Shown here: positions 3,864 to 23,971 of the stretch, piece after piece
How the letters are laid out: each line of letters starts with the position of its first letter
Position numbering within the stretch: the stretch's first letter is position 1
Assembly (NCBI GenBank): GCA_032718475.1
Contig: JAUCBJ010001228.1
Coordinates: 1 to 33,206, forward strand
Direction: 5' to 3'
DNA: 33,206 nucleotides
Source: Nemertoderma westbladi
Taxonomy: Eukaryota > Animalia > Xenacoelomorpha
The notes under the pieces: model-generated
What the model was told of the DNA's origin: nothing
Databases searched by the model: none
What the model saw: the letters and a program-made list of their open reading frames with translations, nothing else
Position numbers and translations under genes: made by a program

Positions 3864-4099
3864 ACAAAAAGTACATCGTTTTGTTAACCCAAAACAATGC
3901 TTGTTGACACAGACATTTATTTTCGTTATCGAAGCGGGGAACATAACTGAATTCATATTATTAAAGTTAATCATATGGAAGGAGAGTATATGAGCAACGA
4001 CTCCCGGTTAGATCTAAATGTAGGGCGTGGCGTGGATGAGATGAACTTTCAGGAGTTGCTTAATTAACATTTAATTAAATTAAACGTCTGCTTTACGTT
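3864..4099 (+). repeat. 236-bp direct repeat, copy 1
   Basis: ACAAAAAGTACATCG...CTGCTTTACGTT appears identical by eye to 5886-6121. Confidence 0.95.
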
Positions 4100-4253: not shown

Positions 4254-5887
4254 ATTTTGTAGTACTGATTACCAGTTGTTCGTATTTTGTAGTACGGATT
4301 ACCAGTTGTTCGTATTATGTAGTACGGATTACCAGTTGTTCGTATTATGTAGTACTGATTACCAGTTGTTCGTATTATGTAGTACTGCTTACCAGTTGTT
4401 CGTATTTTGTAGTACGGATTACCAGTTGTTCGTATTTTGTAGTACGGATTACCAGTTGTTCGTATTATGTAGTACTGATTACCAGTTGTTCGTATTATGT
4501 AGTACTGCTTACCAGTTGTTCGTATTTTGTAGTACGGATTACCAGTTGTTCGTATTATATAGTACTGATTACCAGTTGTTCGTATTATGTAGTACGGATT
4601 ACCAGTTGTTCGTATTTTGTAGTACTGATTACCAGTTGTTCATATTATGTAGTACTGATTACCAGTTGTTCGTATTATGTAGTACTGATTACCAGTTGTT
4701 CGTATTTTGTAGTACGGATTACCAGTTGTTCGTATTTTGTAGTACTGATTACCAGTTGTTCGTATTTTGTAGTACTGATTACCAGTTGTTCATATTATGT
4801 AGTACTGATTACCAGTTGTTCGTATTATGTAGTACTGATTACCAGTTGTTCGTATTTTGTAGTACTGATTACCAGTTGTTCATATTATGTAGTACTGATT
4901 ACCAGTTGTTCGTATTATGTAGTACTGATTACCAGTTGTTCGTATTTTGTAGTACGGATTACCAGTTGTTCGTATTTTGTAGTACTGATTACCAGTTGTT
5001 CGTATTTTGTAGTACTGATTACCAGTTGTTCATATTATGTAGTACTGATTACCAGTTGTTCGTATTATGTAGTACTGATTACCAGTTGTTCGTATTTTGT
5101 AGTACGGATTACCAGTTGTTCGTATTTTGTAGTACTGATTACCAGTTGTTCATATTATGTAGTACTGATTACCAGTTGTTCGTATTATGTAGTACTGATT
5201 ACCAGTTGTTTTATTTTGTAGTACTGATTACCAGTTGTTCATATTATGTAGTACTGATTACCAGTTGTTCGTATTATGTAGTACTGATTACCAGTTGTTC
5301 GTATTTTGTAGTACGGATTACCAGTTGTTCGTATTTTGTAGTACTGATTACCAGTTGTTCGTATTTTGTAGTACTGATTACCAGTTGTTCATATTATGTA
5401 GTACTGATTACCAGTTGTTCATATTATGTAGTACTGATTACCAGTTGTTTTATTTTGTAGTACTGATTACCAGTTGTTCGTATTATGTAGTACTGATTAC
5501 CAGTTGTTCGTATTTTGTAGTACGGATTACCAGTTGTTCGTATTTTGTAGTACTGATTACCAGTTGTTCGTATTTTGTAGTACTGATTACCAGTTGTTCA
5601 TATTATGTAGTACTGATTACCAGTTGTTCGTATTATGTAGTACTGATTACCAGTTGTTTTATTTTGTAGTACTGATTACCAGTTGTTCGTATTATGTAGT
5701 ACTGATTACCAGTTGTTTTATTTTGTAGTACTGATTACCAGTTGTTCGTATTATGTAGTACTGATTACCAGTTGTTTTATTTTGTAGTACTGATTACCAG
5801 TTGTTCGTATTATATAGTACTGATTACCAGTTGTTCGTATTTTGTAGTACTGATTACCAGTTGTTCGTATTTTGTAGTACTGATTAC
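4254..5887 (+). repeat. 30-bp minisatellite, about 54-55 units
   Basis: Unit AGTACTGATTACCAGTTGTTCGTATT(T/A)TGT with a few recurring variants and several 29-bp units in the 3' part. There are no unique spacers. Confidence 0.98.
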
Positions 5888-6121
5888 AAAAAGTACATCG
5901 TTTTGTTAACCCAAAACAATGCTTGTTGACACAGACATTTATTTTCGTTATCGAAGCGGGGAACATAACTGAATTCATATTATTAAAGTTAATCATATGG
6001 AAGGAGAGTATATGAGCAACGACTCCCGGTTAGATCTAAATGTAGGGCGTGGCGTGGATGAGATGAACTTTCAGGAGTTGCTTAATTAACATTTAATTAA
6101 ATTAAACGTCTGCTTTACGTT
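5886..6121 (+). repeat. 236-bp direct repeat, copy 2
   Basis: Matches 3864-4099 at an offset of 2022 and starts exactly where the minisatellite ends. Confidence 0.95.
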
Positions 6122-7242: not shown

Positions 7243-8153
7243 CCTCGCACCTACCGGTAGCCGGCGGTTGTATCAGAGTTTAACTACCAGTAGCTAGCTG
7301 ATTTTACTACATATACCAACAACGCTAAACTGTAGAATGGCAGAATGGCCACGACAGCAACCATAGCTCTTTAGCGTTACCGGTACCGTACTTACTAATA
7401 ATAAAATTAAATTAAGTCGACATGGGGGTTCGTGAATGCAGCATTAGAGGAGGCCCACCTAACAATAGGCTTACTGGTACCGGCACCATAGCACTCTTGT
7501 ACCTGTATACTTGGATAGCGCAAGAGCATGCTGGTTTCTTTGATTAAAGGATTAGGCTATTACACTTGAATGCTTCCAATTTTCTGTTTACAACTTTAAT
7601 TGGTCTAATCTACATTACTGTGTGCTACTGTTGCATAGGTAAGCCTATACAGCTATAGTTAACTTTATGCGGCTCCTTTTCGAATGTTGACCCAATATGC
7701 TTTACGGTTAACCTTTAGAACACACGGATAGGCACACAATCATTTGTTAGACATATAGGCCTAATGACAACGGTACTCCTCAACTGAAAGCCCTCCACCA
7801 CATTGATACAATAGGTATGGTTAGGCATCGGTAGCGCTATAGGCCCTATAAAATCCCCTCGCACTCTGTTACTCTAGCTGATACAATAGGTGTGGTTTGA
7901 GGTATAACTATATAAAATCCACCACATTCTCTGGTTACTAACATTCACTCTATGTTAACGATCCTATATAAAACATAGTTAGTTAGTTTATTTTATTTAT
8001 TTATGCGTCCGCTTTTTAAGTTAAATTACATATAATATAGACATACACAGACCGGTAACATTTAGGTCTACTTTACAGCTTTATAAATGCAGAAATGAGT
8101 ATGAGTGTACGGGTGTACAGGTGTAGGCCTACTAGTTAGATAGCAGTATCCAT

Positions 8154-8582
8154 CTATGAAAAATGTTGATGATTACCGGTAGGCCTATTATTATTATTAC
8201 AGGTAGGCGTTGCTAGTTTAATTTCTTTCCAAATAGTCTCCATCGGTTCTGGTATAGTTGCAGCGGTCTCTGTTTCCCAATTCTCTTGTAGTGGTATTAA
8301 TTCGTTTTGATTACCGGTAACTTCTTCTTCTTCTTCCGTTCCTGGATTTATTCTTATGTTCAAAGTAAAGTTTTTTGTTGTTTCTAACTTTGTAACACCG
8401 TGTTTGTGATTGATGATATTGGTAAATCCGATTTCAAATTTTTTATTAATGTATCTGATTTCCAAATCAGATACGTTTGAGGATGACACAAAAGTATCCT
8501 CACTCTCAAAATCGAACTTTATGCTGCTTTTCAACGACCGGTTGTTGATATAGGCGAAATATATATATATATCATATATCAT
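8154..8582 (-). CDS. Hypothetical protein, last gene of the pPolB cassette
   Basis: 142-aa ORF co-oriented with the pPolB and TBP-like genes, with a beta-like core and an acidic tail. TATA-like sequence upstream (~8615-8628) and AATAAA on the minus strand near 7987-8002. The start codon is uncertain and I recognise no family. Confidence 0.45.
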   Translation of the reverse strand: MIYDIYIYFAYINNRSLKSSIKFDFESEDTFVSSSNVSDLEIRYINKKFEIGFTNIINHKHGVTKLETTKNFTLNIRINPGTEEEEEVTGNQNELIPLQENWETETAATIPEPMETIWKEIKLATPTCNNNNRPTGNHQHFS

Positions 8583-9305
8583 CTATATATATCATCTTCT
8601 TGCTGTCTCAGGTTAGTTTATATATATAGTCTACTAAGGGTAACAGACAGGGTGGATACAGTATACCGGTATTTTTATTTTTTTTCTTATTTTGGTTAAC
8701 AAAATTATAGGTCATTGTTTGAAAATTGAGTTTATATATATTTTTGTAGGGGGTCGCAGATGTTTACATTACAAAATTCACATAGTTAACAAAATGTAGA
8801 ACATAAACCTTTCCCATGCGGATTAGCGATATATGCTCTGTTCATTGTTCTATTCTGAATGTAGGGAGATGCATAGCGGATGTTTTAATAATAATATGTG
8901 CCTGTATACAGACTAGTAACAGATAGGATGGCGTCGTCTTTGACTATGAATACCAGCACATACCCCTAATTTTTTTCTCACTGAGCTTAGCGTTGCCTGC
9001 TGTACACATGCACACTCATAAGTAACAGATGCGCTATAGTAGCTCACCCGTGAGCAACAATGCTTAGTTAGCTAGCTAGCTAGCTACGGCTGCTGAGTAT
9101 ACTATGCCTACTTGAGTGTTACAGGCAATCGCTCTACTGAAGTTAGTTAGTTAATTTTCCATCAAACTAGTTGTTGATTTAAAAAAAAATATTCATAAAT
9201 TTCTTCTCCCTCCAATTTAATATATATATATATATATTTTACAGTAAAAATCTCCACCACCACCAAACAGCATCAACAATAAATTTCACTCACACTAATT
9301 ATATT

Positions 9306-9836
9306 TTACATCAAAAACAATAATAAATTATTAACCAGTTTGATGAATATAGGATAATATATATGAAATTTAAACGGGGAACACATTAATGTACATTTAC
9401 CAGTGTAGAAACAGCAAACAACAACAATATTATTTATTCTGACTTTACAGTTATTGAATATTTCAGGGTCGTATGAAATTTCTAGTTTAACATTATCAAA
9501 TATAACATAAAACCCGATATTGTTTATAAGTAACCTATAAATTACAGTATCGATACTAAAAATATAAGTACACAAATTGATTGATTTAAAAATCAAATTA
9601 ATGTTTGTTTTTTCTAATATATGTTTTTTCACTTTATTAAAATTATATTTTCTACCGAGAATTGTTATTCGTCCATTTGTAAATATTAATATAGTTGCAC
9701 CAAATACCTTATATATAAACTGATTAGGTTTGAGTACAATTTTACCATTCAATTGATTTTTTAATTCTTTTAAATTAAGTCCAAAAATAATCTGCTTACA
9801 ACTTATATTTTTATTTACTATTTGATAATTCATCAT
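9306..9836 (-). CDS. Divergent TATA-box-binding-protein (TBP)-like protein
   Basis: Two TBP-type repeats: YQIVN...LNLKEL...ATILIFTNGRITILG (cf. TBP TALIFSSGKMVCTG) and ISYDPEIF...VVCCFYTGKCTLM (cf. SSYEPELF...VLLIFVSGKVVLTG). It is intronless and about 175 aa. The likely ATG is at 9836 or 9833, overlapping the pPolB C-terminus. Confidence 0.75.
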   Translation of the reverse strand: MMNYQIVNKNISCKQIIFGLNLKELKNQLNGKIVLKPNQFIYKVFGATILIFTNGRITILGRKYNFNKVKKHILEKTNINLIFKSINLCTYIFSIDTVIYRLLINNIGFYVIFDNVKLEISYDPEIFNNCKVRINNIVVVCCFYTGKCTLMCSPFKFHIYYPIFIKLVNNLLLFLM

Positions 9837-12800
9837 CAACACCGTCGTCTTTTGGTTCTTCATAAATTGGTATATTTGATATTTTTATAGGTTTTTTGAG
9901 GTTTGTTTTATAGTGCCCCCAAGGAAGCGATTGATTTTTATTAAGCCAATAAAGTTTATCATCAAAGCTACTGAGTGCAAATTTATTTTGCTTTAAGGTA
10001 TAAATACGATGTAATTTAGATTGAAATCTGTGTATGTTTTTTTTTATTTCTTCATTTGAGTTGTATGCTTTTAAATATTCTTCATATGTAATATTCGTTT
10101 CCACAACAGCTCTTGTAATACCTTTTGCTCTACGAATATTTTTATTATTCCATTCCAAAATTGAATATAATTTTGGTCTTAAAAATACTGCTTGTTTAAT
10201 TTCACGTGAGGCTAGTTCGTCTTTACAGTAATAGAGTCTGGATTTATTTTTATCGCTGTAGAGGGGGTGATCCTTAGGGTAATTGGAAGTATCTAAAATA
10301 TTATTTTTAATTAATGCTTTTAAAAAATTATTCTGTGATGTATTATAATAACAACCTATCAATGAGTCAGTGTCTGATGCGGCAATTTCAATACGACAGT
10401 TTAATTCTTTCTCAATAGGTAGCAATTTATTGTAATACAGCTCATACATATCCAATTTAGCCAAGTCCTACACAGCGCTACCAATAAATATAGGCTTATC
10501 GAGAGTTACAGAGTCTTTCACTAATAAATGTCCCGATAATGTATTATTGTATATTATAAATTGTTCATGATTAATACGATTTACCAATTGATCGCATTTA
10601 TCGTTGCTATTTGCGATACGAAAGTTACATCGGTCTCGTATCCTCTCTATTGATTTGCCAAACAGTGAATTATTGAGCAATTTCGCGACAGCAGTTTCAA
10701 TGTAACTTTTTGCTAGGCGCCTTTGATTAATATTAAAATCTATGTAATTTTTAAATACAAATTCTTGTTGAAAAGAATATAATTTATGTAGTTTAGTAAC
10801 AATTAATCCATGTTTTATATAAAATTTTAACAGTTTCAAATGTAAATGATAAAACTCTTTATCAAATTGCGTCAGCAAGAGTTTTGGTGTAGACATCCTA
10901 TATTTACGGGAGGTACCTCTTTGTATCGATAAATTATTAAATTGTTCCCGCATATAAGGCGAAAGCATTGTTTCATTTATACTTAAATGCTCAGGGGCTA
11001 ACGGTAATTGTAATGTTTGATCGTGAATAGCCTTGGGATAATTTAAATCACATATTAAAAAATATCCAGTAGATCCATCAATGTCTAAATCTACCAAGTA
11101 CTCGATTAGTTTTTCTGGAATTGCATTCTCTAAATGTTTAATACTTACTTCTTTGAATTGCGAGGTGGGTAGTTTTTTACTTAAATTTCCAGAATATAAA
11201 GAGTTGAAATCAATATTAAAAATATGGCATTCTTCCTTAGTAGAATCATATGTACTTGTACCTGGTATATTTGATTCTATATAATGTTTTCGACAAAATG
11301 AAACACCCTTTAATAATACTTTAATAATACATAATAATACATAATACATAATCCTTTATTAATTCTATTTTACATTTATTATATTTTAGCGCGCAATCAT
11401 AGGTAAATGACGCAATACTACAGTAAAAAACCACTTCTAAATCGTAATTTTGTTTACAAACATTCCTAAAATTCTCAAATATATCAGCAAGCAAACAAAC
11501 ATCGAGTTTTAAATAGGCTAAAAGATAATCTTTGAGATTCACACAGTCGAATTCTACCCATGATAATCCTTCAAACCTATAATCTTCAATTGTGCATGTT
11601 TTTTGTGTTAAGTTACTAAAAAAATTATTTATAGACGGCAAACCAGTATCATTAAATTTATTAATATCTGTCAAGTACTCGTATGGAAATACTCCTTTCC
11701 ATTTAATTGTTGAGTTATTCAAGTTTGGATAAAAATATTTCATTTCTTGTAGAGTAATAGGTAAAATTGAGCTTATATCATGACTCGCTACATTTGTTGA
11801 ACACTCAACTAAATTACTTAGGGAAAAGCTTAAAAATTGATATGTGTCTAAGAAACGTAACTCAATTTTTTTAGAAGTGTTTTTAATTTGGATAAACGCA
11901 CTCAGTGAAATATATCGTTCTGTATTTCTCGGTATAACCTTTATATCCCAATCGGTGTATTTCTTATCTCTAAATCCGGTTTGTAATATACAATGTATAT
12001 CGTAATTACTGGAATTGTGCCCGCAAAGTACATACAGGTATCGTTTCAATGATAAACTTCGGTTACAACTATTACAGGCTGTTGCAATATATTTACCTGT
12101 AATATGTGAATGATGTCTGTTTTTCCCAACATTATTATTTAAAGTAACATTACAATAGAAACAAAATTTTGCCTGTTCAAAATTTACAAAATCAATATTA
12201 GTAAATGACATAGTTTTATGAGTGTATATGTCTGACCAACAACATAATTCAGTTAAATCAAAATATAATGAATCTAAGAAATCTTGAATACAATTATTAT
12301 TATTATTTGACTTTACGAATGTTTTCAAATGACATTTTGGGGGGTTAATTAATTCAGTATTGGGAACAATTAAATAACTCGCAGCACACGGTATATGCTC
12401 CTGTATAAATTGATTATTAACTGAAGGTTGTAAGATACATTCTATATCAAAGTAGGTGACAAACAATGGGGATAAGGTTCTATCTAAATTTGTAAAACTA
12501 ATGTGTGTTCTTTTTTTATTAGGTAGTGTCTCTCGTTGACTTCTTCCTTGGTAGCATGCAAGACGGTGTCTTTGGAGAACTTCCGATTGAAAAAAATGAG
12601 CCAAACACCTTTCACAATATTTCCTATTCCCGATATGAAGAGCTCTCATATTCAGCAATCGATTCAAGTTAGTTATGCAAACATAATGATTCAGTTTAGG
12701 TACATTGTTATTTTTTACTACAAGTAATATATTTAATAACTCTTTATCGGGTGTAATTTTACTAAACGGTGGTTGTCTTAATATAGATACGGGAGAGCGT

Positions 12801-13873
12801 TTGTTGTCGTTATTCCAACATAGTAAATTAATTATATATTTTGAATTTTGTTTTTCAAAAAGTTTAATCGCTAACTGCCACTCTGTTGGATAATTATTTT
12901 TCCCGTTGTCAAAAATGAAATGACTCATATAATTTTTGTACGATGAAGTACGGTTTTTGTGATCTTTCACTTTGCTACTAAATTTTGCAGATATAATTAC
13001 CCATTTGAAACAGTCATTATCAGCCGTTTGTATATTTATTGTACATTTTTTAGCTGATAGAGCCTTAGGTAATTCCATATATCCATGCCCCTTATATAGT
13101 AACGACCTACACTTAGATTCAGCTAATTTAATTTCAACCCTTAATAAAGATTTAATACGCCATCCCGAACCACGTGTGTTAAAGATGGCTATTTTTTGTA
13201 ATATATTTTCCACAACATACTCAAACCATGTGTCAAAACTTTGCGACGAATCTACAGTATTAATAGCACCACCGGAAGAATTAAAATAAAAGGTTTCCAA
13301 TTGCTCGCCTTCTGAAAAATGTGATCTGTACATTAATACATTTAGACCTAACCACAGTCTAAGAACATTCATTTCTTTCAATCTATCTAATATTAACTGA
13401 AGAATATTACCTCGAATTTGTGCTAATGCTGTTTCTACATCGGGATAATCTCTAGAAGTTGGGAGGTCGTGGACATAAATTTCAAGACGATTATCGTGAG
13501 CTTCTTGTTCCCGCGTAAAAATTGTTGCGCATGTACCAAGAGCCATCCTTAAGTTTTTTCTGGATATTATATTTTTATGTTGCGGAAATTTACGCTTTCT
13601 TGTGTAGTAACATTTCAAGTGACAGTCGTGTCGTATATAATTCTCATATGTATACTCTTTATTACAGGTAGAACAAGTCAATTGATAGGTGCGGAACTCC
13701 ATTTCTTTACAACCAGTAGTCGATTCATGTCGTTTACAAATTTCGCTGCATGAAGTCACAACATGACACTTAAAACAAGAATAACTTTCAAAATGTGACC
13801 GTAGGTGGCGTAAGTAATTATGTCTAGTTACATTCATATGACAGAATGAACAACATATTGTTATTTTATCCAT
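9811..13873 (-). pseudogene. Polinton/Maverick-type protein-primed family B DNA polymerase, split into three ORFs
   Basis: N-terminal C2H2 fingers; RGSGW and INIQTADNDCFKW motifs; ExoI YFDIEC; endonuclease-VII-like insert CFYC...RHHSHITGKYIATACNSCN; ExoII GHNSSNYD; KGVFPYEY; ExoIII YLKLDVCLLAD; PolA IDFNSLY; PolB KLLNNSLFGK; PolC SDTDSL; C-terminal KGI and LSSFDDK. Frameshift at ~11311-11350 and in-frame TAG at 10468-10470 (GSAV*DLAKLDMY). Confidence 0.92.
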
Positions 13874-13975
13874 GTTGAAGTTTGTTTAGATAAATAATAA
13901 TAATAATAATAATAAAATATGTCCAAAGATTAAAATGAAATGAAATGAAATGAAATGTTATTGACTATATCTAAA

Positions 13976-14021
13976 CATTTATATGCTAGCGAGGGAAATA
14001 ATTTTAAACCAATCACCAATC
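13976..14021 (-). promoter_or_regulatory. Candidate Pol II promoter of pPolB (two CCAAT boxes and a TATA-like box)
   Basis: AACCAATCACCAATC at ~14007-14021 and CATATAAATG on the minus strand at ~13976-13985, about 100 bp upstream of the ATG at 13873. Confidence 0.35.
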
Positions 14022-14067
14022 GCTTATGACTATTAGAAACCACAAAGAGTTTAACTTATGATTAGGT

Positions 14068-15132
14068 TTACATATTAGGATAATAATCAGGTTTCCATGG
14101 AGAATTAGTAACAGGCTCTACTAGAGCTGGGTTACTGACAACTTTCTGTTTCTTTGCAGGTAATGTGTTGGTAAATTTACTCGATGATCTTGGCTTTCGA
14201 GGTAATATTTCAGGAAAGACCTGTTGCGGTTGAGAGCAACTCTCTTCAACATCCGGATTAGGTGATGGGATCTCTACGAAAGCTTTAGGTTTATCCAAAA
14301 GGACAAAACCGTCAACATTGGCTTCAATAAGAGAAACGCCATCCATAGCCTCTTTGAGAAAACTAATATGGGCTTTATCATTCAAGTAATGCAACTCGAT
14401 AGAATTTCCGCCGGCCCCTACTTCAGTAGAATTATCGGTGTTGGTGATAATAATTTTTTTATTATTGGTTTTAATCATTTTGTGACGGTCTGATAATTGA
14501 ATGATATTTTTATCAAAAAGATGCTTGTCTGTTTCATCGACTTGGTTGTCCCACTCTCGCAACAAAACAGTTAGTTCCTGTTTTGACAAATTGAAACCTG
14601 TATAATAGTTAAAACCAACACTATCAGCGTATCTGAGGCTGATTTTCCATAAGCCAACATAGTTGGTTCCTTTAAAAGCTGTTACAAATCCAATAAACTC
14701 TGGATTTGATAATTCAATGTAGAATTGATCGCTAATAATCTCTAGCGGTGGAGAGAGAAATTGCAATAATTTGCCTCTGTATTGAATTAGAACTTCAGTA
14801 AAAGCTTTGTTGAGAACTTTACATTTGCCTTGTTTCTGAACGTAAACATCACCCGATGTGGGGTTTATGGAAATATTCAAATTTCCCCGCGCAAAACGAA
14901 GAGTTGGATATATCCTACCTGGTATAATTGCTGGTCTGGATTGATGTTGGTTGTTGTTGGTTGTTTCTAGAATGTCTAACAAATAGCGGGTATCTTGATG
15001 GGAAAAACAAATTGATTCGTTGTCCTCCTGAGATTCCACAATAAAATACTTGCTGTGAACGATGGTACAAGTATATTTATTGTAAGTAAATTTCCAGCTA
15101 TTTGTTGCTCCGGTTTTTTGCGTTAAGGCCAT
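14068..15132 (-). CDS. Protein with a PC4/Sub1-like ssDNA-binding motif, possibly tandem degenerate copies
   Basis: Intact 354-aa ORF. FVTAFKGTNYVGLWK...TGFNLSKQELTVL resembles the PC4 pattern VSVRDFKGKVLIDIREY...KGISLNPEQWSQL. It has a Pro/Lys-rich tail with an NLS-like PAKKQK. Confidence 0.55.
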   Translation of the reverse strand: MALTQKTGATNSWKFTYNKYTCTIVHSKYFIVESQEDNESICFSHQDTRYLLDILETTNNNQHQSRPAIIPGRIYPTLRFARGNLNISINPTSGDVYVQKQGKCKVLNKAFTEVLIQYRGKLLQFLSPPLEIISDQFYIELSNPEFIGFVTAFKGTNYVGLWKISLRYADSVGFNYYTGFNLSKQELTVLLREWDNQVDETDKHLFDKNIIQLSDRHKMIKTNNKKIIITNTDNSTEVGAGGNSIELHYLNDKAHISFLKEAMDGVSLIEANVDGFVLLDKPKAFVEIPSPNPDVEESCSQPQQVFPEILPRKPRSSSKFTNTLPAKKQKVVSNPALVEPVTNSPWKPDYYPNM

Positions 15133-15187
15133 AATAATAATAATGAATACGAAAAATATTACAAGTGATAAATTTTAAACCGTATCG

Positions 15188-15490
15188 CTGTAATAAATTG
15201 ACACCATAGTTCTCACTCTAAAATTGTGTTTGGTCGGAAGACGACGCCTAAGAAAAATGATGCTGAGTTCGACATTAGGTATCGACTCAAAAACAAAAAT
15301 CGTGTGAGACACGTAGCTCAGATTTTCGTTTTTAGGTCGATACCCAATGCTGGAATCAGTATCATTTTATGTGGTGTCGTTTTCCGACCAACGAATATAC
15401 AACGAGTAAGATAATGTATAAATTATTAAGGAAATAACACAATGTCAGAGTGAGAACAAAAAAATTAGATATGGTATCAATATATTACCA
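15188..15490. other. Long imperfect inverted repeat (foldback), about 300 nt
   Basis: Inner arms 15230-15301 and ~15321-15391 (TTGGTCGGAAGACGACGCC... / ...GGTGTCGTTTTCCGACCAA). Outer arms 15209-15230 / ~15435-15457 and ~15190-15208 / 15470-15488. Apical mini-hairpin CGTGT-GAG-ACACG at 15301-15313. Confidence 0.88.
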
Positions 15491-16468
15491 TGAAGATTAC
15501 AAGTGATGAATTTTATTAAAAACATTCAGTTATATATATAAATTTGTGATGTGGCATAGTCAACGAAGAAGAGATGGGACGTGTCATAATCATCGACGAA
15601 TAAGAAAAGAGATGGGGTGCAACGTGGTTGAATGGTTGGTTGGTTACGTGGATAGGAAATATGTGAAAGAATATGAATCATAGGGTTGTGTGTAATAATA
15701 ATCAATAATTATTATAAAAACGCACAGTATAATGTTAGTAGTAGTAGCCTTTCAATATGACACAGATGCTGCGGGATCGGTTAGCTTGAGTAACTACTTG
15801 GAAATGTTCGTATACGTGTAGCTGGAACGTGGCGGAATTTCATGCACATGTATCATACTGAGTGGTTGGTTTATTGGTTTGGTGACAGCAGTTGAGTAGC
15901 TCTATCAACGGAGGGATGTAAATCGTTGAGTTGGCAATCGATATAATATACTGTAATATAACGACTTGGTATATGCATCGTGTAGATGGCCACGTTATCG
16001 TTTTAGTCACCATATACAGTATGTGGAGGTGGTAGCGTGGCGAAAAGGGGAATAATCGGTGGGTTGGGGGCTAGCCATGCGTCGAGAAGTTAGGCTACGC
16101 GAAGATGAATATGCAATGGATGGTTGTTGCAGCAATGATACGAATCAATACTATCGGTTGGTAGGTAACAGCTGCCGTTGAGTAAGGTGGGCAACGCGAG
16201 GTTAGGCTACGCGTAGGTGAATACGCTACGATTGGTTGATGGTAACTACCTCGATGGTGACAGATGTAGGCAATTAAACGCCGTAATTTAGCATCGGAAT
16301 TTGGCATTTTTAATAGTCCTCCGAGATGTAGCCCATAGCCCAAGCTAGGGAGGAGTTCGTTGGGGTCACCTCTTCTCCTACTACTGTTCCATTAACTTTG
16401 TAGTTCGTCTTAGTGTGTCTTTCTCTCAGCATATCATCATGGTATTTTTATCATCTATGACGGGATCT

Positions 16469-16625
16469 ATGAGATCCTGACCAGGTTAGATTTGTACGCG
16501 TCACCATTCTGCTGGCAGTTATGCTAAGTCGCTTTGGCTGAAGGCCGTTGGGGAAAACAATAGAGTTTTGTTTCTCAATATTGATAGTCCAAACGATAAT
16601 AGCACAATCAGCAAATCGGTAAATC
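16469..16625. repeat. About 150-bp direct repeat (LTR-like segment), copy 1
   Basis: ATGAGATCC...GTTAGATTTGTACGCGTCACC...AGCACAATC is nearly identical to 20498-20654. Confidence 0.92.
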
Positions 16626-18575
16626 CGTAATGACACAGATATAATAGCAGAAAATACACAGATTAATTGCTGATGTTAGTGGCGCTGACGGTCATAAACT
16701 ATGACCAGTCTGCAACTGAGTAACTAATGAACTGACCGGTAAATCAGTAGTGCAGAATAATATATATGATTAACACACACGGATATTGATTTCACCTCTT
16801 ACTGTACTTGGCCCTCTGTACCCAATGGATGCTTTCCTATCTCTAATCACGTGCTTCCCACCCCGCTATTGGCTAAGATTCTAATTGTCACTTTGGCACT
16901 CCCCGTGAGTGTTTCCCCCGCTGCTAGCCTCTACTAGCTGTATTCCCTCCGAGGTGGTTTGACCTCTCACCTCTCTCTGTGGCTTTAGGGCTTGTGTCGC
17001 CCCCCCCCCCCCCCCCCAATGTTGGTTATGAGGAGAGATTAATATTGGTAATCTCGTATCCCCAACTTATTGGTAAATGCCACTGGTCCCATTTGCTGGT
17101 AGGTAATGAAGTGGAATTGAATCCGCTTACACCCCCCCCACCCCCCATGCTATCTTCCCGGTGAGAAGATAGCATCAACCTTAAGTGCACTTCAATTCCG
17201 CTGGAACCCAATCTACTATCGGGTGTGGGGTGGATTTATTTTCTCGGGGTCGGCTTTCCTGACCCCCAACCCCCCCGGGTATGTTATTACTACCCCCCCT
17301 TGGTGCAATCACGAGCTATGTTGCACCAAGGTATCTGGCGTCTCTGTTTGAGACAATTGTGCTTTCTCTCCATACAATTTTTTACAACCTCACTCCAACC
17401 TTAATCTTGGACCTCTCTGTCCCTTACTCTCTCTCTCGCGGACCTCATTGTCCCTTACTCTCTCTCTTGCTGCTCACTCCCCACACTTGAATTGCACTCC
17501 TCTCACTTCCTCACGCGCCAACACCTCCTCTCCATACTTCCCTCATACTCAACCCATTTTGTTTGGTTCTCTGTCCCCTCCTGTCAGGCTCCCACATTCT
17601 CATCAGTGTGGCTGCACTAGAGAAATGGGATCCGTCTAATGTCTCCACCTACCCCTGATGTGCCTCACCCTCCCCTTTTGTGCCGTCACACTCAAGAAGC
17701 GTGATTCATCTAGTGTCTCGTCCTTCTGTCATAGTCAATTGGTCCCCAGACCCAGTAGTTAATTGGAAAAGGTTATATATGACTATAGTACTTATATTGG
17801 TAGTACTTATATTTCTCGATTAATTATATACATATGTAGAATGATGCTATTGCACTTAATTATTTGCACTTAGGAGTTCGTATTTGCCTTCCAGATCAAT
17901 GGTTGGCGTTCTTTTGGTATCCTCGCCAACTCCCCTGAGGGAATCCCCATAGGCCCTCAAATATGCTACCAACTTCTTCCACCTCTTGTACGGTATGTCC
18001 ACCTCTCTGTCAACTAGGTGTCGGCTACCGTAGTGTACCGACTCGCCCTTCAGCCCTGGGTGGTCTACAAAACTCTCAAAAGCCACCTTAAAGGCTCTCC
18101 TGTGATCTTGAGGTGCCCCTGATAGCTCTCTTCCGATAACCACGGCCTTGAATAGGTTTAATAAACCTATCATTATCCAATCCTCCTGTAAGATATATCT
18201 CTTCTGATATATCTTTATCGCTCCCCTTCGGATCTGATATATCTCCTGTTTCCCTGGCCTCGCTCCCCATTTCAGCGAGTTCGCCAGTTCTGCTCCGTAC
18301 TCCTCTCGGACTTGCCCCAGTCCATCGGCTTGTGGCAGACAAGCCCCATGAGCTGGCCCATCGCCACTGTCTCCACAATGTCCTGTGCCCGCTCCATGCT
18401 CCTCCGGAACTCTTACTAACTTCTAACTCTTACGGTACTATGTACCCTGATACTACCCTCATGGTATGTTAATATACCACACTCCCTACTACTACTACTA
18501 GCTCTTACGTACTATCTACTACTATTACTTTCTACTATTTCACTTCTTAAGTTATTATTTTCTTCCTATTTATTT

Positions 18576-19904
18576 TTATATTTTGTGTGGGAAGGGTGTC
18601 TCGCCCTCATTCCCACCCCCCTCAGTCCAACATATTGGACGACTAAACTTTAAGGCGATTCTTCCAGTAGGCACTCCCCACTGCCCCCCTGTAGGTCCTC
18701 TTATCCTTCGCCACACTCTCCTTGTCAATTCCAACTCTCTAGGAATTGATCTTCCCTCCTCCACCACCCTAAAATCGGGTCTTTCGGTCGCCTTCTTGAT
18801 TTCCTCATGGTCCCCTGGCAGCAAAATGCCACCCTTCATCTTGTCGTCACCTGGCGGTAGAATGAAAAGAAATTGAAAGAATAGATAAAACATAATGGAT
18901 AATAGTAATCCTATCCCTTTCCACCCTGTCTTCTTATTTGACCTCCCCCTTTTCGGTATGCCTTTCAACCGGACCAGCGTCTCCTCCGGACACTTCTCCG
19001 GACATCTCGCCGTCCACTCTTCTCCTTCCTCATACCGATACTTGCCGGGAACATCCTTGTTCCATCCCATCTTCTCTAAGTCTTCCGCGTCGAATCCATT
19101 CTCCTCCTCCCACTCTCTTACTGTTGCTTCCCCTACTGACTCATCTACCGACGGTATTTCTCTGGAACTATCCTCTATCCTTTCACCACGCTCCACTATG
19201 CGTGGTTCCAGATCCATACCCAACTCCTGGTATCCTTCCCCGGGCCGCTTCTTGCTTGGGACCTCCCCATCGCCTGTCTCTGGTTTCTCCTCTATGTCCT
19301 TAACAGTGCCTGATAGCATGCACCCTGATGTCTCCGACACCCTGAATGGAATCTTGGTTTTAATTGGGCTGCTAAGCGTCCATCCGAAAGGCGTGAGAAT
19401 CGCCGTCGGATCCCGCTGCTTATTCTCTCCGAATATGGTCCATACTCTCTCGTGGGCCATCGGACAATCCATTCCGACTATGATGGATACCTTCGAGACG
19501 TCCACTTCCGGTATTGAGAAATCGATATCGTCCAGGAACCGGTATTGCTCGACCTCGATCCTGGTAGGTCGCCTGGCGTTTATATTAATCGATTCTATTA
19601 TCTGAATGGGGTCGATGGTCGCCCCATAATCACATCCTGGTGCTATTGCTGATATCTCGCACCGTCCCGTTCTCATCTCCAGGACCTCATCCTTGCTCGA
19701 GATAGTAGTTACTGCCATCCTACTCGGCCTCGCCTGTAACCCTATCTCCTCGGCCGCCCAATTCTCCACCAGCGTGAAGGCTGCTCCGCTGTCGACCAGC
19801 ATCAATGTCGTGACTGATCGGCCGCCCTTTCCTGTTATCCTCAATGGTACTACCCCGAGTAGTACTGTCCTCTTTCTCCTTGCTCCCGTCGTGCTCGTAG
19901 CCAT
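18576..19904 (-). CDS. BEL/Pao-type aspartic protease with an unrelated acidic and hydrophobic C-terminal extension
   Basis: VLLGVVPLRI...MLVDSGAAFTLV (DSG active site), IIVGMD and PTAILTPFGWTL are characteristic of BEL/Pao protease regions. Confidence 0.8.
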   Translation of the reverse strand: MATSTTGARRKRTVLLGVVPLRITGKGGRSVTTLMLVDSGAAFTLVENWAAEEIGLQARPSRMAVTTISSKDEVLEMRTGRCEISAIAPGCDYGATIDPIQIIESININARRPTRIEVEQYRFLDDIDFSIPEVDVSKVSIIVGMDCPMAHERVWTIFGENKQRDPTAILTPFGWTLSSPIKTKIPFRVSETSGCMLSGTVKDIEEKPETGDGEVPSKKRPGEGYQELGMDLEPRIVERGERIEDSSREIPSVDESVGEATVREWEEENGFDAEDLEKMGWNKDVPGKYRYEEGEEWTARCPEKCPEETLVRLKGIPKRGRSNKKTGWKGIGLLLSIMFYLFFQFLFILPPGDDKMKGGILLPGDHEEIKKATERPDFRVVEEGRSIPRELELTRRVWRRIRGPTGGQWGVPTGRIALKFSRPICWTEGGGNEGETPFPHKI

Positions 19905-19907
19905 AGT

Positions 19908-20460
19908 TTAGCCTCCAGTCTCATCAGTCTCGTCGTATTCTATCGGTGTTTCTCTACACTCTCCGAATCTGTGTCCTTCTACCACGCATCGATGACATAG
20001 TCCGTTTGTATCTGTGTAGGCTACCCGATCTTGTTTATCTTGTGATCTCGCCTGCCAATGCTTACAACTCATGGTCTTATGGGTTACATCTCTATGCAAC
20101 TGACATTTGGATCCTGGATTGTAGTGTTCCTTGTATAGCCCTTCACGTATCGCGAGTAGGTTCATATCTACCAGTTTAGTGTTTTGATTATTTGGACTCG
20201 GCCTACTAATTACATTTGTCCGTGTTGTTATTTTGTTTCTGTTCGTGCCACGGTGTGGCCCTACTCCCAGCTATCTGTGGACTTGCAGTCCCCTGTGTCG
20301 CCGCGTATGGTAGTGACTGTCTTAATTTTGGTAACGCATTTGCCACACTATGTTCTGGTTTCGGCCTGTTATAATCGGTCTTTGGCGCCCTTCCCAGGCT
20401 ATCCTCGCTGTAGACTGGGTCTGTGATTAGTTCTGCTTCGTAATTGAGTAAGTTTGACAT
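19908..20460 (-). pseudogene. C-terminal BEL/Pao gag fragments with Zn knuckles
   Basis: YEAELITDPVYS, CQLHRDVTHKTMSC and GLCHRCVVEGHRFGEC (CCHC). Split across two frames and separated from the protease ORF by a single in-frame TAA. Confidence 0.75.
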
Positions 20461-20497
20461 TTCCTCTAGGCCCGGTTCCGCACCTTTCTTCTCCCGG

Positions 20498-20654
20498 ATG
20501 AGATCCCGACCGAGTTAGATTTGTACGCGTCACCGTTCTGCTGGCAGTTATGCTAAGTCGCTTTGGCCGAAGGCCGTTGGGGAAAACAATAGAGTTTTGT
20601 TTCTCAATATTGATAGTCCAAACGATAATAGCACAATCGGTAAATCGCTAAATC
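20498..20654. repeat. About 150-bp direct repeat (LTR-like segment), copy 2
   Basis: Matches 16469-16625 with a few substitutions and lies just upstream of the gag ATG at 20460. Confidence 0.92.
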
Positions 20655-21124
20655 AGTGCTTAATGTGCTCAGTGTACTAATCTTACTAATAATTATTACT
20701 ATTAGTCCTAATAATTTTACTACTGGAGATTGGAATCCCGTTTGTCGGATACTGGCATTTTATTGTGGGACTGTAAATATAGGATGTTAAACCGTTTAGT
20801 ACGTGGTCATCTTTCACTCTTATAATTTTCGCTGGACGCTTTGCAAGTCGGCGCGGCACTAGTTTCCCCTACTTTGTAGTCTAGGTTTGTAACAGCAGCT
20901 CAATCGAAACCACTTCTCACTCATTCATCCAAAATACCATGATTATTTATGTTAAACCTTTATGAATAACATACTAACCTTGCTTCAGTATCAATAGTCA
21001 CATGCATTACTGTTATAGACACTGATTCATTTCACATTTTGCCCTAATTATAATGATTTTCTGCAATATTGTATTATTATAATAATAATATATTAATAAA
21101 ATAATATATTTATTTTCTTCATAC

Positions 21125-22960: not shown

Positions 22961-23489
22961 GGTTTTATTGAAAAATATCGGGACAAGAAATATAACGAGT
23001 AAAAATATCGCGCATTGAAAAATATCGATAAATTCGCAGTTAAAAAAATATCGCGAGGAAAAATAACGAGCGTAAAGACAATTAGATATTGTTACTCGCG
23101 ATATTTTTACTCGCGATATTTTTACTCTCGATATTTTTACTCTCGATATTTCGCCCATGTGAAAAATACCAGGTTTTCACTTTTCGGTCGACTTTTTATG
23201 GAAATTTTATTTACTAAGATTTTTTATTTTTTTAAATTTATCTTTATTTAAGTGTTTTATAGTGCTTACGGCTGTGTTTATAGTGTCTTTTGGCCTGTTC
23301 ATGTACTAATTCGTTTATTGGTTTGGTTAGATTCAGCCATTCTGTAACCTGTGTTTTTGGTGAAAACCTGGTATTCTACACATGGGGGTCACTGCAAGTG
23401 AAATACAACAGCAGAAAGTTTGGTATTCTTCACATGGGCCGATATTTTTACTCGCGATATTTTTCAAGTCTCGATATTTTCACCATTAT
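22961..23489. mobile_element. MITE (Mutator-like) with 15-bp subterminal repeats and an 8-bp target-site duplication
   Basis: CAGAGCTG at 22953-22960 and 23490-23497. Imperfect TIRs are built from AAAAATATCG(C)GAGT / ACTCGCGATATTTTT units. Confidence 0.7.
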
Positions 23490-23971
23490 CAGAGCTGAGG
23501 TGAAGGGTTTGGGGGGGGGGGGGGGGGGGTGGGGTTGGAGGGTGGCTCTTGGATTCATATTTTATAGTGTTTCCCTCTTACACCCCTCCAGTATTTCCTC
23601 TTACCCCCGACCATTACTGCCCTCCTATTTCTGTTTGCCACAATTTTTCCGTACCGGTAGCAGCTTCGCCAGGTCATAATCTAAGCAATAATGCAGTGGA
23701 ATTTTTGGCATTGATAACCATTATTTATATGGCTATTCGGGCCTGATTTATTGTTATGGTTATGTTATGGCTGTAAACCGTGATAAACTGTTTTACTGGG
23801 ATCAAAATTCAAGGGGGTAAGAGGAATAAAGTATATCAGGATTGGGGGGCTCTTGACATTCAAAATGTAAACCTGTAACGTTGCGGAATTTCAATCTGAA
23901 ACACTCTAATCAACTCAAACAACAACTGATTGGTTTTCTTTTTTTTTATTCTGATGTTCTTTCTCACTAAC

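Follow-up and report, generated by a model that had tools for sequence, protein, structure and literature searches.

A divergent TATA-binding protein gene beside a Maverick-type polymerase in Nemertoderma westbladi

The TBP gene and its protein

We examined a window of 33,206 nucleotides of the Nemertoderma westbladi (Xenacoelomorpha) assembly GCA_032718475.1 (contig JAUCBJ010001228.1, positions 1 to 33,206 of the forward strand). It contains a repeated element with a gene for a protein-primed DNA polymerase B (pPolB) and, adjoining it, an intronless open reading frame (ORF) related to the TATA-binding protein (TBP). Four minus-strand ORFs lie in series in this element: a 354-amino-acid orphan, pPolB in three pieces, the TBP ORF and a 142-amino-acid orphan. 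The TBP ORF (9306..9863, minus strand) encodes 185 amino acids in two TBP lobes with no stop and no frame break from 9863 to 9306, and its true start is likely M10/M11 or M1.

The Pfam TBP family (PF00352) matched the ORF in two stretches (E 6.2e-7; 29.6 bits, cut-off 22.9). Direct searches with the protein recovered no relative among 1.84 billion representatives, in the PDB sequences or in viral contigs, and none of the 110 candidates from a set of 5.8 billion sequences was related. We also gathered 110 loci with a related pPolB (30 viral and 80 metagenomic) and searched their 5010 open frames with the window TBP: according to phmmer, one of the 110 loci (L031) gave a standout match (E 4e-5). 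A profile of these two proteins, the window TBP and that of L031, recovered 84 relatives among 517 candidates, most of them 150–190 amino acids long, here called mini-TBPs. On a profile of the 71 relatives of at least 140 amino acids, from which it was itself excluded, the window protein scored 37.5 bits, and its score on a profile built from 77 archaeal TBPs was 15.6 bits; among 1001 controls (1000 shuffles and the reversed sequence), the highest score on the mini-TBP profile was 11.7 bits. The ORF was confirmed as a real, two-lobed, very divergent TBP homolog.

The AlphaFold model, for which the mini-TBP alignment was the input, had a mean predicted local distance difference test (pLDDT) value of 71.8, with lobe 1 above 90 and residues 104–117 below 50; folding without an alignment gave a pLDDT of 32. 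Because the alignment that drives the model is itself TBP-like, the evidence from fold and from sequence is partly dependent. All 43 matches listed by Foldseek in the PDB at E<=0.001 were TBP entries, and VIA gave Z values of 8.2–10.0 for 38 TBP entries (next fold 6.0), with a root-mean-square deviation (rmsd) of ~6 Å over ~160 residues. Both tools put TBPs first across residues 6–185 of the window protein. In the Atlas, 30 out of 30 matches were TBP clusters (0.95), with a low recognition value. The fold predicted was the TBP saddle, and the two TBP repeats that a preliminary description had read from the letters of the window were borne out by the two PF00352 stretches above the cut-off and by the two-lobed model.

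The residues that intercalate into DNA were numbered after yeast TBP, counted from the 1tbp alignment. F61, F136 and F152 of the window protein aligned with yeast F116, F190 and F207, in agreement with the three out of four phenylalanines that the preliminary description had considered retained; the motifs it was based on (LIFTNG, PEIF, CCFYTG and KPNQF) are all present in the ORF. In the mini-TBP family, phenylalanine occupied the same three positions in 71/71, 71/71 and 69/71 members. The fourth position, F99, corresponded to P46 by strand register and to N47 in the automatic alignment, so that three of the four canonical phenylalanines are kept and the F99 equivalent is lost. F49, the phenylalanine of KPNQF, is by strand register a core position (V102 equivalent), which is leucine in 66 out of 71 relatives. 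The ORF belongs to the TBP family, but it is not a canonical four-phenylalanine TBP. The other residues kept were N17 (N69 equivalent), K52, T57, L59, R65, D132/E134 and R142, and the P191 position is N137.

The first-lobe loop aligned without gaps over 27 residues with the family (KPNQF in the window, KPYQL in L031). Proline was present in 71/71 and glutamine in 69/71 mini-TBPs, and the combined P-x-Q motif was found in 68 out of 71 mini-TBPs and in none of the 77 archaeal TBPs. In the first-lobe hairpin, the distance from the loop to the next phenylalanine is two residues less than the canonical one. The change from NPKRF to KPNQF had been reported correctly, but it is not specific to this copy: P-x-Q is a family signature, and the loop is, judging from these alignments, an old family trait. 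A lesion of this copy was ruled out on the same counts. Finally, the acidic residues C.L3.2 and C.L3.4 of TBP are described as contacts of TFIIB in the accessible text of PMC7221094. These stirrup acids were Glu/Glu in 70 out of 71 relatives and D132/E134 in the window protein, with Asp for Glu at the first. Overall, the window TBP shared 19–30% identity with members of the mini-TBP family.

The polymerase element and the overlap

The N-terminal piece of pPolB (11321..13873, minus strand; 850 amino acids) had 115 relatives at E<=1e-10 among 5421 candidates, 24–39% identical, the best ones being 25–35% identical. Many of the relatives carry PF03175, and the named ones come from insects, molluscs and corals. 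Together with the repeats, these named relatives point to an animal host. The middle piece (10471..11355, minus) holds the polymerase palm motifs and begins at a frame change in a 10–11-nt tandem repeat; the last piece (9811..10467, minus) follows an in-frame stop (10468–10470), and its 3' end overlaps the start of the TBP gene. The PF03175-type pPolB corresponds to the Alpha type of adintovirus/Maverick polymerase in the accessible text of Starrett et al. (PMC8502044). A protein-primed PolB of this type is present in the element and broken in this copy, twice: by the frame change near 11310–11350 and by the in-frame stop. At the stop, the whole depth of all four sequencing runs reads otherwise, and where contigs of runs X4 and X5 span the tandem repeat at 11310–11350, they too differ from the window. 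Since contigs of other runs differ at both sites, both breaks look private to this copy.

Contig depth in three DNA runs of three studies was hundreds or zero to the left of ~7050, and in X1 and X3 it was 10^4–10^5 across 7400–16500; such contig depth is not a copy number, and X1 is perhaps the window's own source. The 7400–16500 stretch is plainly a much-repeated element. By the depth step, this copy extends over ~7250..16460 and appears truncated, with a CA microsatellite on the left and a remnant resembling a long terminal repeat (LTR) retroelement on the right. We saw no integrase, ATPase, protease or capsid gene in the window, and we found no terminal inverted repeat pair around the element, whose ends appear lost or interrupted. 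Profile searches with the 354-amino-acid ORF upstream of pPolB (14068..15132, minus) and the 142-amino-acid ORF downstream of the TBP gene (8154..8582, minus; its 5' end lies in a TA-rich repeat) gave no family match. A likeness of the 354-amino-acid ORF to PC4-type single-strand binders found no support.

Several further features lie in or next to the element. Tandemly varied, subterminal-like repeats occupy 15800–16300, with a unit number that differs in other copies, and 7260–16460 is strongly enriched in the palindromic words TACCGGTA, TAGGCCTA and AGCTAGCT. The LTR-retroelement-like remnant (16469–20657, minus) abuts the right end of the element and comprises 160-nt direct repeats at both ends, an aspartic protease and a zinc-knuckle-like piece.

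The TBP start lies inside the 3' end of pPolB, as had been described: the ATG at 9863 and the pPolB end at 9811 give an overlap of 53 nt, and the alternative starts M10/M11 overlap pPolB by 23–26 nt. The coupled expression that had been suggested from this overlap is not needed. Within the pPolB coding sequence lies CTATAAAA, a canonical TATA word (9883..9890, minus), 26 nt before M1 and ~53–56 nt before M10/M11, and a second copy (9906..9913, minus) stands ~50 nt before M1; both are candidate TBP promoters. These are the only two CTATAAAA words on the 4-kb pPolB coding strand, both <=50 nt upstream of the TBP start, and their clustering there points to a promoter of the TBP gene's own. A transcript from the nearer word would start just past M1, so that M10/M11, where family proteins begin, would provide the first AUG. 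This reading of CTATAAAA is post hoc and concerns AT-rich DNA. A TATA promoter lying within pPolB is a likelier source of the overlap than coupling is, and as evidence of translational coupling the overlap was rejected, because the embedded words would explain it by themselves.

The contrast between an intact TBP ORF and a broken pPolB is true as described and carries no weight: given 2 breaks in ~1354 pPolB codons, the chance of finding 185 intact codons is 0.76. Intactness was rejected for this reason as a sign of selection. A 650-nt contig of another study, covering the 5' two thirds of the TBP gene and the pPolB tail, showed 12 differences and no gap, whereas a non-coding piece of 566 nt had 57 differences and 45 gap letters. 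Some copies carry a 3-nt insertion at 9829, which preserves both frames. These observations give weak support to constraint; 181 indel rows and 863 substitution rows of copy variation exist beyond those listed. Run X5, guessed to be RNA, had a depth of 0–8 over coding and non-coding parts alike and gave no sign of transcription. Words of the form CTATAWAA occurred 15 times in the whole window (7.3 expected), 7 of them in the 9-kb element. Three CTATA(T/A)AA words ~60 nt apart at 7800–7975 (plus strand) form an imperfect tandem duplication with no ORF behind.

In the remainder of the window, an ORF of 699 amino acids (198–2297, plus) had no Pfam or PHROG match, although its C-terminal motifs look like those of the tyrosine recombinases in Crypton-like elements. 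A 30-nt unit repeated ~55 times (4254–5887) gives rise to a spurious 407-amino-acid ORF, and two identical 236-nt direct repeats (3864–4099 and 5886–6121) flank this array. At 22970–23490, direct and inverted repeats of 15 nt are clustered together with an inverted pair of 27 nt (23154–23180 / 23360–23386), an arrangement that resembles a foldback or miniature inverted-repeat transposable element.

Distribution of the mini-TBPs

L031, of which 19 of 23 kb were examined, is a Maverick with pPolB, an rve-chromo integrase, ATPase, PLA2, KilA-N and a TBP of 169 amino acids (Pfam E 2e-15). Outside the window it is the one locus that links a mini-TBP to a Maverick; the 84 family proteins are sequences without genomic context. 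When viral contigs and prokaryotic genomes were searched with the mini-TBP alignments, no additional Maverick locus came up; the viral contigs gave one giant-virus TBP (L111), and PF00352 was absent in 7/7 viral records searched. In L031 the TBP gene immediately precedes the ATPase gene, at a distance of 5.5 kb from pPolB, while that of the window adjoins pPolB. Two related-looking ORFs of 150–155 amino acids in L031 (13037–13489 and 17674–18141) had no Pfam match, and the second gave a weak match to the mini-TBP profile at chance level.

The pPolB of L031 was the second-best BLAST match, of 106 loci, to the N-terminal pPolB piece of the window. In a tree of the middle piece (95 rows), the window, L031 and ten others fell outside a clade of 83 rows (SH-aLRT 98), with the branching among them not settled. 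This tree was quick and loci with short matches were dropped; the others in the window and L031 group are mostly contigs of <9 kb, too short to show a TBP gene. On these two examples, the TBP gene seems to characterise a single polymerase subgroup.

The tree of TBPs comprised 47 rows: 25 of the family, 20 of the 77 archaeal TBPs, one giant-virus TBP and the window protein. The family together with the window protein was separated from archaea and the nucleocytoplasmic large DNA viruses (NCLDVs) with support of 99/96, and the family alone had 73/83; the window protein formed a long branch at the family base. Of the phylogeny proposed in the preliminary description, this tree covers viral TBPs, with archaeal rows standing for cellular TBP. 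The window protein is probably a member of the Maverick mini-TBP group. The giant-virus TBP (P0201; L111 9956–10516) is near-canonical and lies beside a major-capsid-like gene; it served as a reference for residue numbering and was 16% identical to the window TBP.

A possible late-gene promoter factor

We found the word CATAAAC at 12 sites in L031, all on the coding strand (3.85 +/- 2.04 in shuffles, of which 1 in 200 was as high). It stood <=130 nt upstream of 7 out of 15 ORFs (expected 0.17; p 6e-10, uncorrected for ~16,000 words), whereas in the 24 TBP-less loci of at least 12 kb (L042, a duplicate, was excluded) the best upstream word attained 1.3e-6 in one locus and was no stronger than 4e-5 in the others. 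In particular, CATAAAC precedes PLA2, ATPase, integrase and two orphans by 36–73 nt. It also stands ~40 nt ahead of a putative penton ORF, whose start looks like that of Maverick pentons although no tool matched it. The word was not found within 500 nt of TBP or pPolB. No TFIIB-like ORF was found among 12 L031 ORFs or among the window ORFs. In L005, a TBP-less locus, TAGTATA stood upstream of 5 out of 14 ORFs (p 1.3e-6, uncorrected); upstream words may also exist in other Mavericks that encode no TBP themselves.

We lean towards a function as an early-made, element-encoded TBP that would act as a promoter-specificity factor for late genes and recruit host TFIIB and RNA polymerase II (Pol II). 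From homology, predicted fold, residues, the linkage to pPolB and the box of L031, we infer its expression, DNA binding, TFIIB contact and early or late timing. The protein would be made early from the standard TATA box embedded in the polymerase gene, would bind a variant TATA box before the packaging and virion genes of the element, and would bring host TFIIB and Pol II onto these late genes. Kinking of the upstream end of the box and docking of TFIIB would fall to the C-terminal lobe, with its F190/F207 equivalents and acidic stirrup. The choice of box would be altered by the remodelled N-terminal lobe, which has Pro for F99 and a hairpin shorter by two residues. Among the three functions offered in the preliminary description (an element-specific promoter factor, a decoy for host factors and an origin-binding protein), the first is the best supported, because the protein retains DNA-facing residues and the TFIIB stirrup, and L031 has a variant box; origin binding gained no support.

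A number of observations weigh against this reading. The box evidence comes from one other element and not from that of the window, where no upstream word was enriched among the element's 6 ORFs; the window copy lacks late genes, and the genes it does hold would all be early ones. CATAAAC was picked after seeing the data, 4 of the 12 occurrences overlap stop codons, and the poly(A) signal has CATAAA as a variant. Two sites, however, lie upstream of their own gene's stop and one lies 200 nt past a stop, and for this reason a promoter would fit better than a poly(A) signal. Only one of the 26 pPolB loci of at least 12 kb (L031) carries a TBP, so that most Mavericks manage without. The second lobe was modelled less well, with a TM of ~0.4, an rmsd of ~6 Å and a poor lobe junction. 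The window TBP is not nested in the mini-TBP family but sits on a branch of 4.4 substitutions, departs from the near-invariant family residues R67, M69, Q98/S99, P137, N150 and G162, and has no clear Q158/N159 equivalent. Its helix-2 region has a charge of +6, compared with a family mean of -2.8 (67 out of 71 parsed); helix-2 positions are not confidently alignable, and the basic N-lobe cluster (TFIIA, TAF1, Mot1, Brf1) was compared by charge only. Given the residue departures, the long branch outside the family and the basic helix 2, the function of the window protein may differ from that of the L031 TBP.

The presence of a TBP gene in such viruses is already in print: a TBP-like gene is listed in the legend of Figure 5 of Starrett et al. 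2021 (PMC8502044), on adintoviruses, Mavericks-Polintons and MELD viruses. The accessible text gives the label only, with no account of residues, box or function, and one supplementary file had no match to TBP or TATA; a fuller account in the supplements is possible. In the literature searched, we found no residue analysis, promoter box or function of a Maverick TBP, and no description of how Mavericks/Polintons time their virion genes. The window copy differs from the adintoviruses of PMC8502044, as far as that text is accessible, in that neither an integrase nor an ATPase, protease or capsid gene was seen, and no close relative of its TBP could be detected.

Like cellular TBP, TBPL1/TRF2 and TBPL2/TRF3 (PF00352), the window protein has a saddle fold, three of the four phenylalanines and an acidic C-lobe stirrup. 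It differs from cellular TBP in the absence of an N-terminal extension, in the remodelled loop and hairpin, in the loss of the P191 equivalent and in its low identity to human, yeast and plant TBP (16–19% in structural alignments); it keeps the N.L5.1 phenylalanine, which TBPL1 changes to tryptophan. NCLDVs mostly encode their own RNA polymerase. According to the accessible text of PMC7221094, their TBPs (for example P0201 in L111) share with ours the two lobes and the L5.1 phenylalanine in both, but NCLDVs for the most part bring a TFIIB of their own; neither the 19 kb of L031 nor the window showed a TFIIB-like gene. A parallel, in the proposed mechanism only, is with the beta/gamma-herpesvirus TBP mimics, which combine a virus-encoded TBP fold with host Pol II and a variant TATA box before late genes: ORF24 from Kaposi's sarcoma-associated herpesvirus is a TBP mimic with a TATTWAA late box and, in the accessible text of PMC12529657, a large multidomain protein in a six-protein viral complex (five partners) that keeps four phenylalanines and lacks the acidic TFIIB contacts. 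Unlike ORF24, the window protein is a bare saddle of 170–185 amino acids with one phenylalanine lost and the TFIIB acids kept; as an ORF, it is a single TBP core of 185 amino acids without the Pol II-binding and additional DNA-binding domains of the large mimic.

The alternative that survives best, though we regard it as unlikely, is a decoy that would bind host TFIIB, TFIIA, Mot1/BTAF1, TAF1 or Brf1 and dampen or redirect host transcription while reading no promoter of the element. The TFIIB stirrup is the best-kept motif of the family, one intercalating phenylalanine is lost, and the helix-2 region of the window protein is basic (+6) on the surface that acidic tails of TFIIA, Mot1, TAF1 and Brf1 touch, as described in the accessible part of PMC7221094. 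A pure decoy, however, would have no need of the F116 and F190 equivalents (71/71 each), the F207 equivalent (69/71) and the other DNA-facing positions that are kept, and it would leave the variant box of L031 unexplained. The contact between TBP and TFIIB is also DNA-dependent, which counts against it.

It is quite unlikely that the protein is a general substitute, reading ordinary TATA and replacing host TBP at all promoters of the element, outside TFIID and its regulators and with no early/late switch. Viral TBPs commonly lose regulator-binding residues according to the accessible text of PMC7221094, and 7 of the window's 15 canonical CTATAWAA words (7.3 expected window-wide) are in the element. 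The L031 box, however, is non-canonical and avoids TBP and pPolB, and the fixed Pro for F99, with Asn for P191 in the window, predicts a changed recognition.

That the gene is a decaying or relaxed passenger, a once-captured TBP no longer working in the window lineage, we consider improbable. It has the longest branch in the tree, an odd composition and many losses of family-invariant residues, and its intactness is expected by chance; yet at an overall identity of 16–30% it retains three phenylalanines, N17, the acidic stirrup and the Pro-x-Gln loop, and both the gap-free 650-nt contig, set against the gapped non-coding piece, and the frame-keeping insertion at 9829 speak against relaxation. 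Very improbable is a role in binding the origin or bending the terminal repeats in aid of protein-primed replication, as host NFI and Oct-1 help that of adenovirus. TBP bends AT-rich DNA and its gene adjoins pPolB in the window, but in L031 it lies beside ATPase, 5.5 kb from pPolB, so that the adjacency is not conserved, and the TFIIB stirrup and the boxes before genes would be left unexplained. Finally, it is scarcely credible that host TBP, TRF2 or TRF3 gave rise to the gene through a recent retrocopy inserted into the element, and this reading, which the preliminary description had set against its own, was rejected: the gene is intronless, but 16–19% identity to human, yeast and plant TBP excludes a recent host copy, the loop deletion is common to the mini-TBP family, the gene has a read depth similar to that across the remainder of the repeated element, and a pPolB is linked to the TBP gene both here and in L031.

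If the protein is a decoy or a relaxed passenger, it would be one more divergent example of an accessory gene for which a label already exists in these viruses. If the promoter-factor reading is right, we can tentatively picture, without expecting as much, a Maverick clade with a one-protein late-gene switch, in which a bare TBP saddle with changed DNA recognition and an intact TFIIB dock would redirect host Pol II to private TATA variants and each lineage, the very divergent one of the window among them, would have its own TBP-box pair, without a viral TFIIB or polymerase. Such a solution would be far smaller than the six-protein complex of herpesviruses or the TBP-TFIIB pairs of giant viruses. 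It would provide natural orthogonal TBP-promoter pairs, and these natural TBP variants would be material for how the saddle picks its sequence.

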